Source: Bacteroidales bacterium
Lineage (GTDB): Bacteria > Bacteroidota > Bacteroidia > Bacteroidales > WCHB1-69
Direction: 5' to 3'
Length of the DNA: 64,000 bases
Assembly (NCBI GenBank): GCA_017454945.1
Contig: JAFTCA010000010.1
Span: 161,619-225,618 of the forward strand
Shown here: positions 16,431-18,703 of the stretch, one piece after another
How the letters are laid out: the number at the start of each line of letters is the position of its first letter
Numbering within the stretch: position 1 is the first letter of the stretch
Notes under the pieces: model-generated
Told to the model about the DNA's origin: nothing
Seen by the model: the letters and a program-made list of their open reading frames with translations, nothing else
Database searches by the model: none
Made by a program: the position numbers and the translations under genes

Positions 16431-16465
16431 GTAGAGACGTTTCATGAAACGTCTCTACTTTTTTT
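16431..16465. terminator. Bidirectional terminator between metK and the radical-SAM operon
   Basis: Perfect 28-nt palindrome GTAGAGACGTTTCATGAAACGTCTCTAC followed by T7. It overlaps the last codons of the rSAM gene. Confidence 0.8.
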
Positions 16466-17543
16466 CTGTTAATGTCAGATATAGACACTCCTTCATGTTC
16501 TGGTTCTCGTCGCGGAGGTGCATACCACCGCCGAGGCAATATTTGAACACCTTGCAATCCTTGCAGGCGTCCTTGCGAGTCCATTCGCGGTTGCGGTACA
16601 TTTCGAAGCGCTTGTCCCACACTTCCCAGAAATCGTCTTTGTAGATGTTGCCCTGGTCATAGCGAGCGCGGATGCTGGTGCAGCCCGAGATGGCGCCATC
16701 GATACGGATACCCGCCACATTGACACCGGCGCCGCAATAGTAAAAATGATCACGAACTTCGGCTTCGTAGCCACCCAAGAAACCTTCGCAAGCAAAAGTG
16801 AGGTAAATCTCCTTCTCCTCACGGGTTTTCTTGATGAACTCAAGCAGCTCAACCGTTTGCTCGTGGTTGAGGAACATCGTCGGGTCTTCGGCGGCACGAC
16901 CCGATGGGAAGATGGTGAAAATGCGCCAATATTTCACACCACCGTCAATGAGGAAACGCTTCATGCGTTCCAAATCGCCGAAATTATGCTGGTTGACGCA
17001 GGTAACCACGTCATAAACCAAATCTTCCTCTTTGGAAATCATCTGGATGGCATTCCACGCCCTGTCGAAGCTCTGAGGATTGCCGCGGAAAGCGTTGTGC
17101 TGCTCAGCAAAACCGTCGAGGCTGACGGTAATGGAGTGCAGGCCAGCACGGAGCAGTGAGTCGAAGCGGGCGCGGTCGAGAGCCATGCCGTTGGTTACCA
17201 TACCCCACGGGTAGCCACGCTTATAGAGTTCAAGTCCCACATACTCAAGGTCTTTGCGCATCAAGGGCTCGCCGCCCGAAACCACAATCATCACCTTGTG
17301 CGGATCCACGTGCGGCGTGAGGGAATCGATAACGCGCAGGAAATCCTCGGCGGGCATGTCCTTGAACAACGACTCCTTACGGCAATCGCTGCCGCAGTGC
17401 TTGCACGCCAGGTTGCAACGCAGCGTACACTCCCAAAACAGTGTGTCGAGAGGGTGCTCTTTTACTTTTTGCTGATAGTACTTGGCAAACAGGTCGAGGG
17501 CTATCTTCTTACGCAGCCCAATTTTAGTGGCTTTGTTCTTCAT
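16455..17543 (-). CDS. Radical SAM/SPASM-domain enzyme (rSAM/lipoprotein-system type)
   Basis: CNLACKHC (CxxxCxxC) near the N-terminus and a Cys-rich SPASM-like C-terminus (CKDCKVFKYCLGGG). Its start overlaps the upstream small lipoprotein ORF by 20 nt. Confidence 0.85.
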   Translation of the reverse strand: MKNKATKIGLRKKIALDLFAKYYQQKVKEHPLDTLFWECTLRCNLACKHCGSDCRKESLFKDMPAEDFLRVIDSLTPHVDPHKVMIVVSGGEPLMRKDLEYVGLELYKRGYPWGMVTNGMALDRARFDSLLRAGLHSITVSLDGFAEQHNAFRGNPQSFDRAWNAIQMISKEEDLVYDVVTCVNQHNFGDLERMKRFLIDGGVKYWRIFTIFPSGRAAEDPTMFLNHEQTVELLEFIKKTREEKEIYLTFACEGFLGGYEAEVRDHFYYCGAGVNVAGIRIDGAISGCTSIRARYDQGNIYKDDFWEVWDKRFEMYRNREWTRKDACKDCKVFKYCLGGGMHLRDENQNMKECLYLTLTEKK

Positions 17544-17733
17544 CGTTCACAATCAAAGGTTGCTCCGTAGCGGCGGGATCAATTTGATGGATATTTTCTT
17601 TGTACTCGGCGGGGGCCACGCCGTACATCACACGGATATCTCCATCGCCATCCTCCTTATTACAGGAGACCATCATCGAAGAAAATCCCAACACACCGAT
17701 TAAAAATCGCAAAAATCTTTTTTTTGTTTTCAT
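17524..17733 (-). CDS. Small lipoprotein (69 aa), short paralog carrying only the YGxPxAxY motif
   Basis: Lipobox MMVSC followed by ...MYGVAPAEYKEN... Appears translationally coupled to the rSAM gene. Confidence 0.55.
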   Translation of the reverse strand: MKTKKRFLRFLIGVLGFSSMMVSCNKEDGDGDIRVMYGVAPAEYKENIHQIDPAATEQPLIVNDEEQSH

Positions 17734-17757
17734 GTTTTTTTTTGGAGTTAATATATT

Positions 17758-18174
17758 CTATTCGCTATCTTTCTTTTTCAAAATGAAATTGATTTCTTTG
17801 GTCAGCGTACCATAATCCCAATTGTCTCTTTTGTTTTCTTTTTTCATTTCATCACGTTCATACTTCAAATCTATTATCGCCGATTCAAAATCCCCTCCAT
17901 TTTCCTCGCCATCAATATCAGTTACTGCAACTCTAAGGGTTTGATATTCACCACCAATCTCTAACGATCCATGTGCTTGATAGTTTCCAGCGGCATCAGT
18001 GTACACCTTATTCCATTCGTTTCCTACTTGAACTTGAATATTGTTGATGGGTTGATTTTCCTCATCCATCACTTTTCCCGAAACTTTAAAGTCGGCATGA
18101 GGTGAGCCATAACAGGCCGTCAGGGTGACGCCCATGATGGGGAAAAGGAGCAGTAATATTTTTTTCAGTTTCAT
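17758..18174 (-). CDS. rSAM-associated lipoprotein (CarboxypepD_reg-like beta-sandwich)
   Basis: Lipobox LTAC followed by YGSPHADFKVSGKVMDEENQPI...TDAAGNY...TDIDGEENGGDF...GTLTKEINFILKKK. Confidence 0.8.
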   Translation of the reverse strand: MKLKKILLLLFPIMGVTLTACYGSPHADFKVSGKVMDEENQPINNIQVQVGNEWNKVYTDAAGNYQAHGSLEIGGEYQTLRVAVTDIDGEENGGDFESAIIDLKYERDEMKKENKRDNWDYGTLTKEINFILKKKDSE

Positions 18175-18193
18175 GATAATAATTTTTAAGAGG

Positions 18194-18595
18194 TTATTCT
18201 TTCTTTTTCAGTGTGAAATTAATTTCCTTGGTCAGCGTACCTTCATTCCATCCACTCCCTCCCTGCAAGTCGCCACGGCTGTAGGTTATCGTTTTTATCT
18301 GAGGCTCAAAATCCCCACCATTTGCTTCTCCGTCAATATCGGTAGCCGTTACGAGTAGGGATTCTCTCCCTAATCGCAAATCACCGTGCGCTCTATAAAT
18401 GCCCTCTGCGTCTGTATAAAATGTATCGTACTGTTGTACAACCACTTGAATATCTTGCAATGACTGATTATCCTCATCTGAAACCTGACCTTTGATTTCG
18501 TAAGTGGCTTTTGGGGTTCCATAAGCTGCAGTATGGTAGCACGTTGCCAATGAAAAGCCTAACAAACTCAACAAAAACGTTAATAAGCGTTTCAT
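18194..18595 (-). CDS. rSAM-associated lipoprotein, paralog
   Basis: Lipobox LATC followed by ...AAYGTPKATYEIKGQVSDEDNQSL...TDAEGIY...TDIDGEANGGDF...GTLTKEINFTLKKK. Confidence 0.8.
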   Translation of the reverse strand: MKRLLTFLLSLLGFSLATCYHTAAYGTPKATYEIKGQVSDEDNQSLQDIQVVVQQYDTFYTDAEGIYRAHGDLRLGRESLLVTATDIDGEANGGDFEPQIKTITYSRGDLQGGSGWNEGTLTKEINFTLKKKE

Positions 18596-18611
18596 AAGTC
18601 ACTATTTTTGG

Positions 18612-18619
18612 CAAAGATA
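18612..18619 (-). promoter_or_regulatory. -7 box TATCTTTG for the lipoprotein/rSAM operon
   Basis: Exact TAnnTTTG on the minus strand, about 17 nt upstream of the ATG at 18595. Confidence 0.55.
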
Positions 18620-18675: not shown

Positions 18676-18703
18676 AAAAATGGTAGCGTACCTTCGGTAC
18701 GCA
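18676..18703 (-). terminator. Possible murC terminator at the end of a hairpin-rich 3' region
   Basis: GCGTACC/GGTACGC stem (18686-18702). The U-run starts 5 nt after the stem, which is suboptimal. Confidence 0.35.

Follow-up and report, generated by a model that had tools for sequence, protein, structure and literature searches.

Lipoprotein partners of a radical SAM/SPASM enzyme in an uncultured Bacteroidales lineage carry a conserved Tyr-Gly motif, a candidate site of splicease-type modification

Spliceases are radical S-adenosylmethionine (rSAM) enzymes with a SPASM domain that excise tyramine at XYG sites (PMC11414181, PMC10533398). In nature they act at MYG and LYG, as in PIRP-LYG-LPI, and the residue X is variable. 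A short tag suffices for the splicing of whole proteins, and 939 splicease systems have been predicted in 189 genera (PMC11414181, PMC10533398, PMC10849128, PMC9811515). Among the papers using the word splicease that our literature search returned, none concerned Bacteroidales lipoproteins. In NCBIfam, an rSAM enzyme family, TIGR04133 (rSAM_w_lipo), and a lipoprotein family, TIGR04134 (lipo_with_rSAM, "radical SAM-associated putative lipoprotein"), are catalogued as hypothetical equivalogs, and the RefSeq records of Parabacteroides distasonis and of Treponema saccharophilum carry the pair as annotated genes. A literature search on TIGR04133, TIGR04134 and related terms found no paper on either family in this sense; Scott et al. 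2022 (Chem) and Haft & Basu 2011 lay outside that search. Here we describe a locus of this kind on the minus strand of a 64,000-nucleotide (nt) stretch of DNA from an uncultured Bacteroidales bacterium (contig JAFTCA010000010.1), which is called the window below. By analogy with the spliceases, the locus is proposed to be a two-component protein-modification system whose likeliest chemistry would be splicease-type excision of tyramine from X-Y-G. We put the probability of this reading at roughly 0.5.

The locus consists of four co-directional minus-strand open reading frames (ORFs) arranged head to tail. Three lipoproteins of 133, 138 and 69 amino acids (aa) are encoded upstream of the rSAM/SPASM enzyme. 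The ORFs and the motifs read from their sequences are as follows.

18194-18595, minus strand: ORF of the 133-aa lipoprotein
18526-18512, minus strand: motif A-Y25-G-T-P of the 133-aa protein
17758-18174, minus strand: ORF of the 138-aa lipoprotein
18114-18100, minus strand: motif C21-Y-G-S-P of the 138-aa protein, starting at the lipidated Cys
17524-17733, minus strand: ORF of the 69-aa short-form lipoprotein
17628-17611, minus strand: motif V-M36-Y-G-V-A-P of the 69-aa protein
16455-17543, minus strand: ORF of the 362-aa rSAM/SPASM enzyme

The ORFs of the enzyme and the 69-aa protein overlap by 20 nt (17524-17543). The initial annotation, made by a model from the sequence, had described this layout, and all four ORFs and the overlap were found where it had placed them. 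The enzyme is co-transcribed with the three lipoprotein precursors. On a related metagenomic contig, the same arrangement of 133, 138, 68 and 362 aa lies between murC and metK and was independently called as genes.

The enzyme scored 568.8 bits against TIGR04133 (cutoff 425) and aligned with positions 1-346 of the 350-position profile. The 133-aa and 138-aa proteins scored 100.3 and 86.8 bits against TIGR04134 (cutoff 39.8). The pairing that the initial annotation had attributed to TIGRFAMs was thus recovered by the hidden Markov model (HMM) search. The enzyme also carries the Pfam domains PF04055 Radical_SAM (74.8 bits) and PF13186 SPASM (32 bits), both above their cutoffs. Its radical SAM motif is C43-x3-C47-x2-C50, flanked by two extra invariant cysteines, C39 and C54. 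The SPASM cysteines are C252, C270, C288, C327, C330, C336 and C353, and these seven C-terminal cysteines are invariant. The last Cys of the SPASM motif CX2CX5CX3C is an invariant glycine, Gly340, and the resulting CX2CX5CX3G is followed by an invariant Met-His. Considering this glycine and the extra cysteines, one auxiliary cluster may have an open or a non-Cys ligand. A search of the PDB with the enzyme sequence returned distant rSAM enzymes alone, BlsE, SkfB and PqqE among them; splicease structures were absent from the matches.

In a pattern scan of the species-representative genomes, at least 582 stretches matched the enzyme family, and the best 80 loci among these relatives were used as the comparative set. 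Their hosts belong to Alistipes, Rikenellaceae, Tidjanibacter, Parabacteroides, Bacteroides, Paludibacter and Azobacteroides. The closest relative of the window enzyme among the matches listed has 67% identity. Gene order and adjacency in the window are typical of the family, with no difference in kind. The locus is therefore an ordinary new member of a catalogued, uncharacterised rSAM/lipoprotein system, from an uncultured Bacteroidales lineage. What the present analysis adds is the conservation statistics for the whole family, a class of unannotated short forms, the conserved signal peptide and the X-Y-G link with the spliceases.

Each of the small proteins carries a signal peptide with a lipobox Cys (C19, C21 and C24 in the 133-, 138- and 69-aa proteins), and their lipoboxes end in ...LATC, ...LTAC and ...MVSC. 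The 133-aa protein has LLGF in its signal peptide. The two larger proteins are paralogs, as had been noted from the sequence: they are 50% identical and have TDIDGExNGGDF and GTLTKEINFxLKKK in common. A CarboxypepD_reg-like beta-sandwich had also been proposed for them. In Pfam this domain stays below the threshold of 32 bits, at 27 and 24 bits. A single-sequence AlphaFold2 model of the 133-aa protein was unusable, with a predicted local distance difference test score (pLDDT) of 49, and was redone with an alignment of 136 sequences. The new model reached a pLDDT of 91. It shows the helix of the signal peptide, an unstructured segment with Cys19 and Y25-G-T-P28, and a beta-sandwich from residue 29. 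Its Foldseek matches were carboxypeptidase N/D regulatory domains, the best in the PDB, together with teneurin and an N-terminal extension of SusC, and the model and these matches back the proposed fold. The fold search gave a generic transthyretin/CarboxypepD_reg sandwich alone and no functional lead, and a PDB sequence search with the lipoprotein returned nothing meaningful. The model also divides the YGxPxAxY motif of the initial annotation. Its Y-G-x-P half lies on the unstructured tether, whereas the xAxY half belongs to the first beta-strand of the domain.

The Tyr-Gly motif is conserved far beyond the window. Y-G was found within 45 residues after the lipobox Cys in 114 of the 124 (92%) lipobox-bearing family ORFs near TIGR04133 (79 loci and the window), whereas the chance expected from the composition of this stretch is about 18%. 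The consensus of these neighbouring ORFs is [hydrophobic]-x-[V/L]-[M 59%/E 20%]-Y-G-[V/T]-P(69%)-x-[A]-x-[F/Y]-x-[V/I]-K. An exhaustive profile search for the lipoprotein gave 409 cluster representatives at E ≤ 1e-10, corresponding to a family of about 400 clusters at 50% identity. Among the best 150 of these 409, every representative with a recognisable lipobox (135/135) has Y-G at most 45 residues from the Cys. A further 11, with truncated or atypical N-termini, also show [E/M/K]-Y-G-x-P. In the 136-sequence alignment, whose mean column identity is 20%, the sole invariant positions are Tyr25 and a structural Gly, and Cys19, Gly26, Pro28 and the signal-peptide Gly13 are each at least 90% conserved. 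Tandem copies of the motif are common, for example MYGVPVEYGSP and MYGPAPDMYGPPMPMYGP, and the distance from Cys to motif varies from 1 to 45 residues. The proposal of a modification site at YGxP passed the computational checks that had been set for it, namely conservation, adjacency and the existence of minimal partners, and the motif Tyr is a putative target on these grounds.

Enzyme and lipoprotein are closely coupled. With a profile iterated from two window lipoproteins and run on the 80 loci, a family ORF was found upstream of the enzyme and on the same strand in 79. In the 80th (L076) the sequence ends 196 nt upstream of the enzyme, yet a short lipoprotein is visible. The initial annotation had asked whether the rSAM gene often occurs without adjacent lipoproteins, and in all 80 loci a lipoprotein was adjacent. 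Clustering of all larger ORFs in these loci, in which a transporter, a protease or a RiPP recognition element (RRE) protein was sought (RiPP, ribosomally synthesised and post-translationally modified peptide), gave no third conserved gene. The system is an enzyme and one or more lipoproteins. The signal peptide itself is conserved beyond what export alone needs: LG[FILV] just before the lipobox was present in 77% of family members and in 4% (2/45) of the other predicted lipoproteins of the same loci.

The 69-aa protein has a signal peptide (VLGF), Cys24, the acidic stretch NKEDGDGD, the motif and a polar/acidic tail, with no folded domain. It scored 14 bits against TIGR04134, below the cutoff of 39.8, and was recognised by the iterated family profile with E = 1.6e-11. 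Six orthologue clusters have 62-96% identity to it with an invariant MYGVxPxEYK, its gene differs from that of L081 by 9 synonymous and 7 non-synonymous codons, and a homologue was called as a gene in syntenic contigs. Short proteins of about 48-130 aa were found directly upstream of the enzyme in 32 of 80 loci (79 and the window), and in 18 of the 80 a short form was the sole partner within the flanks examined. In each, the signal peptide and lipobox Cys are followed by a variable linker of low complexity, then by [I/V]-x-[V/L]-M-Y-G-[V/P]-x-P and finally by a tail that is polar or acidic. The NCBIfam models do not recognise the 69-aa protein or the Alistipes short forms (e.g. L003 and L017), so that annotation misses such proteins. 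Since the short forms of 18 loci have no domain, the beta-sandwich is dispensable, and from the sequences the constant companion of the enzyme is a signal peptide with the motif. The 69-aa ORF had been suggested as a dedicated minimal substrate. It belongs to a widespread class of minimal partners, and we infer that the 69-aa protein and its relatives may serve as minimal substrates, in effect lipid-anchored modified peptides. At L010:2773-4990 seven tandem family ORFs, three long and four short, lie upstream of one enzyme, and three of the four short ones carry M-Y-D or M-Y-A in place of M-Y-G.

The three window precursors carry A-Y-G, C-Y-G and M-Y-G, which are X-Y-G sites of the splicease type. 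Relatives of the enzyme outside its family were drawn from a plasmid collection. In a BLAST comparison the best of them were enzymes of Agathobacter rectalis (152 bits), Aureibacter (120), Nostoc (TIGR04103, 118), the GDL-motif system (TIGR03913, 118) and Tropicibacter (102). TIGR04347 (99), MftC (88) and NirJ (77) were further off. All of the five best relatives adjoin X-Y-G/A peptides or proteins and have VWE(I/C)TLxCNLxCxHCGS around the SAM cluster in common with the window enzyme. On the Nostoc plasmid, the annotated TIGR04103 enzyme lies between a Nif11 precursor ending in IA-LYG-LPPELF and a 71-aa protein, a gene order that matches the published PlpA/X/Y layout. The Burkholderia GDL/TIGR03913 enzyme adjoins DUF1843 and DUF1842 proteins with TP-YG-VAI and AA-MYG-VAI. 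The A. rectalis enzyme, which scored 235 bits against TIGR04103, 225 against TIGR03913 and 185 against TIGR04133, adjoins a peptide ending in FGPV-MYG-TGVRM that is unannotated in RefSeq. Next to its clostridial homologues lie FGPV-MYG-TGVRV, PLYGI repeated five times together with a C39 exporter, or motifs of the AYA/LYA/LYS kind; Y-A and Y-S are also present in the substrates of these relatives. In a neighbour-joining tree the XYG-associated enzymes form a clade with 97% bootstrap, and TIGR04133 is placed as its sister.

The likeness to the spliceases (PlpXY/PcpXY, RhaX, RcsX/RasX; TIGR04103) includes an rSAM/SPASM gene next to the substrate gene and an X-Y-G site in which X varies, Met being most frequent, and which sometimes occurs in several copies. 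The context of the site is also alike, with IRL-MYG-VPP in the window family and PIRP-LYG-LPI and AVAA-MYG-VVFP in spliceotides. On the other hand, the window substrates bear a Sec/signal-peptidase-II signal peptide where the spliceotides have a Nif11 or NHLP leader, and many TIGR04134-type substrates are folded proteins of 130-280 aa. The family also has no Y protein/RRE, leader peptidase or exporter, and its enzyme has Gly for the last Cys of the SPASM CX2CX5CX3C. The GDL-motif system (TIGR03913 with DUF1842/DUF1843) resembles the window locus in that its substrates are whole proteins with a single [M/P]-Y-G-V-A site and its enzyme aligns at 118 bits. However, GDL substrates are cytoplasmic, helical proteins without a signal peptide, the GDL enzyme has about 490 aa with a C-terminal extension, and the system is proteobacterial.

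Several observations weigh against splicease-type excision. The sister placement of TIGR04133 has a bootstrap of only 52%, and the HMM scores of the window enzyme are nearly equal for TIGR04103 (113 bits), NirJ2 (118), TIGR04053 (119), AhbD (112) and MftC (108). It is outside TIGR04103, whose cutoff is 725. The sampling of relatives from one plasmid collection is sparse and biased. A PlpY-like protein, an RRE domain, a leader peptidase and an exporter were all missing from the genes conserved in the 80 loci and from the domain scan of the enzyme, and the SPASM motif is without the fourth Cys, which the Agathobacter relative retains. About 8% of the lipoprotein paralogs have Y-A, Y-D or Y-P instead of Y-G. 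In view of the bootstrap value and the equidistant HMM scores, the relatedness of TIGR04133 to the spliceases is treated as suggestive and unestablished.

In the proposed mechanism the enzyme would act in the cytoplasm, where its need for Fe-S clusters and SAM places it, on the motif Tyr of the unfolded precursor before Sec export. The conserved signal peptide, in particular the LLGF region, may be recognised as a leader, as in RiPP maturases. By analogy with the spliceases, tyramine would be excised at [M/E]-Y-G, with an expected loss of 135.07 Da (C8H9NO). The modified precursor would then be exported, lipidated at the Cys by Lgt and cleaved by signal peptidase II, and the modified residue would end up 1-45 residues from the lipid anchor. 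The best precedent for this timing and topology is anSME (TIGR03942), a cytoplasmic rSAM/SPASM enzyme that is common in Bacteroides and modifies, in full-size proteins and before Sec export, one residue of a short Pro-containing motif. The two differ in that anSME targets C/S-x-P/A-x-R and yields formylglycine, whereas the lipoprotein motif of the window is [M/E]-Y-G-x-P. With 61.1 bits against a cutoff of 349, the window enzyme falls outside the anSME family.

The same substrate and site could be used by another radical chemistry, such as a cyclophane crosslink from Tyr to residue i+2 as in triceptides, epimerisation, beta-hydroxylation, dehydrogenation or C-alpha/C-beta cleavage. We regard this as possible but rather doubtful. 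All the evidence for the motif as the target applies equally to it, and it fits the near-equal HMM scores for several SPASM families of differing chemistries, the cysteine pattern unlike that of the Agathobacter relative and the weak tree link to the XYG clade. Against it, splicease sites are reported to be marked by just this combination, a near-invariant Gly after the Tyr and a variable residue before it, and we know of no other rSAM chemistry with that signature. Moreover, every nearest relative adjoins X-Y-G/A substrates, possible crosslink partners are unconserved, and the aromatic residue at +7 is missing from the Alistipes short forms.

It is improbable that the lipoproteins are not substrates at all, and that the enzyme acts on a small molecule, such as a tetrapyrrole as in NirJ, AhbC and AhbD, which the lipoproteins would bind, carry or deliver with the Tyr as a ligand. 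NirJ2, AhbD and AhbC are indeed among the top HMM matches, and beta-sandwich lipoproteins are often binding proteins in Bacteroidota. However, the scores against NirJ, AhbC, AhbD and NirJ2 (101-118 bits) are far below their cutoffs of 500-650, and the peptide maturases are closer than NirJ both by BLAST and in the tree. The domain-free short forms, sole partners in 18 loci, keep the signal peptide and motif only, and the motif is also found in tandem copies. No tetrapyrrole or transport genes are conserved around the pair in the 80 loci, and the window neighbours (metK, murC, folD and pepT) include no tetrapyrrole gene. A heme-related function as the lead explanation was therefore rejected on scores, tree, short forms and gene context. 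Still less likely is a motif for the sorting, processing or folding of lipoproteins that is independent of the enzyme, adjacency being co-regulation only. The motif does lie near the lipobox, where export signals of Bacteroidota occur, and the acidic C-NKEDGDGD of the 69-aa protein resembles what we take to be such a signal. Of the three window lipoproteins this one alone has an acidic stretch after the Cys. A sorting signal is hard to reconcile with a distance of 1 to 45 residues from the Cys, with LG[FILV] in just 2 of 45 other lipoproteins of the same loci, with the retention of the motif in a spirochaete and in a family member without the lipobox Cys, and with adjacency in all 80 loci together with translational overlap of the genes. 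Tyramine excision stays the preferred reading.

Some loci deserve description in their own right. On the 424-kb replicon pTS1 of the spirochaete T. saccharophilum (L088:2797-5089), the TIGR04133/TIGR04134 pair occurs outside Bacteroidota, and its lipoprotein has C-Y-G-M-P. Immediately upstream is a gene for an Mpi-family DNA invertase, a possible sign of horizontal transfer or of phase variation. An Alistipes sub-clade (L054:3426-4985, L055, L061 and L075) has two additional genes between the lipoproteins and TIGR04133. One product is a second rSAM/SPASM enzyme, about 345 aa long, which in NCBIfam matches GeoRSP rSAM best, with 112 bits, far below the cutoff; the other, of about 170 aa, resembles a membrane protein or a lipoprotein. 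Of the lipoprotein paralogs alongside, those of L055 and L061 have C-Y-A and those of L054 and L075 keep C-Y-G. At L084:1-1179 the family member P0193 has LLGFSS without a lipobox Cys and retains M-K-Y-G-V-P; without this Cys it is probably secreted without lipidation. The product of the next gene downstream contains GCVATAMAQ and resembles a streptopain-like cysteine peptidase of the C10 family, a hint of a protease link from a single case. As a general feature this adjacency was rejected, since a search for the motif in the 80 loci found no other. A large clostridial rSAM/SPASM family (L089:3743-3949, L102:1808-1915, L104:1560-1817, L103 and L105), often fused to tetratricopeptide repeats, is accompanied by leader-type peptides with MYG, repeated PLYGI or AYA/LYA/LYS and by exporters of the major facilitator superfamily or the C39-ATP-binding cassette type. 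They resemble clusters of the spliceotide type, here in gut Firmicutes. In the literature, the sole paper found to name TIGR04134 applies the label to the type B C-terminal domain of the type IX secretion system, unlike the NCBIfam model (PMC11611037). TIGR04131 is presumably the accession that was intended in that paper, and the apparent typographical error could mislead text mining.

The neighbours of the operon in the window are housekeeping genes (metK, folD, PPDK, murC and pepT), and the following elements flank it.

18619-18612, minus strand: candidate Bacteroidetes-type -7 promoter box TATCTTTG, fitting the consensus TAnnTTTG
18686-18702, minus strand: terminator-like hairpin and T-run downstream of the murC-like gene, 7-base-pair stem with 5 GC pairs, tail TACCATTTTT
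16431-16458, no strand assigned: 12-base-pair hairpin between metK and the rSAM operon, which run towards each other; it contains the rSAM stop codon

The -7 box had been proposed in the initial annotation and lies 17 nt before the first ATG. It fits the consensus, and this match is its whole support; a sigma-70 scan scored no better than its own shuffles. The hairpin at 18686-18702 would part the murC-like gene from the lipoprotein operon. The palindrome at the other end had been read as the terminator of the operon. A strong hairpin is there, with -17.4 kcal/mol and z = -6.0 for the minus-strand RNA, but no U-tract follows on that strand. The T-run (16459-16465) is on the plus strand, where the scan marked a terminator-like site, so that in canonical form it terminates the convergent metK. 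The element at 16431-16465 is therefore primarily the metK terminator, common to both convergent units.

The analysis points to the motif Tyr, to an expected mass change of -135.07 Da and to the 69-aa protein as a putative minimal substrate. As a tentative wider picture, gut Bacteroidales and at least one Treponema may excise Tyr from Sec-exported lipoprotein precursors with the signal peptide as the leader, leaving envelope-anchored proteins and lipopeptides of 45-80 residues with an electrophilic alpha-keto-beta-amino acid beside the anchor. By analogy, the tethered inhibition of serine or cysteine proteases is a plausible role of such ketoamide products. Should another chemistry act here, it would be a novelty for SPASM enzymes at Tyr-Gly sites. 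If splicing is true, the ribosomal chemistry of beta-amino acids and ketoamides would extend from secreted peptides to envelope lipoproteins, a signal peptide would be suggested as a maturase leader, and compact enzyme-and-tag pairs would become available for protein engineering. The abundant commensals of the human and animal gut would then make a new class of lipidated, ribosomally made and backbone-spliced products.

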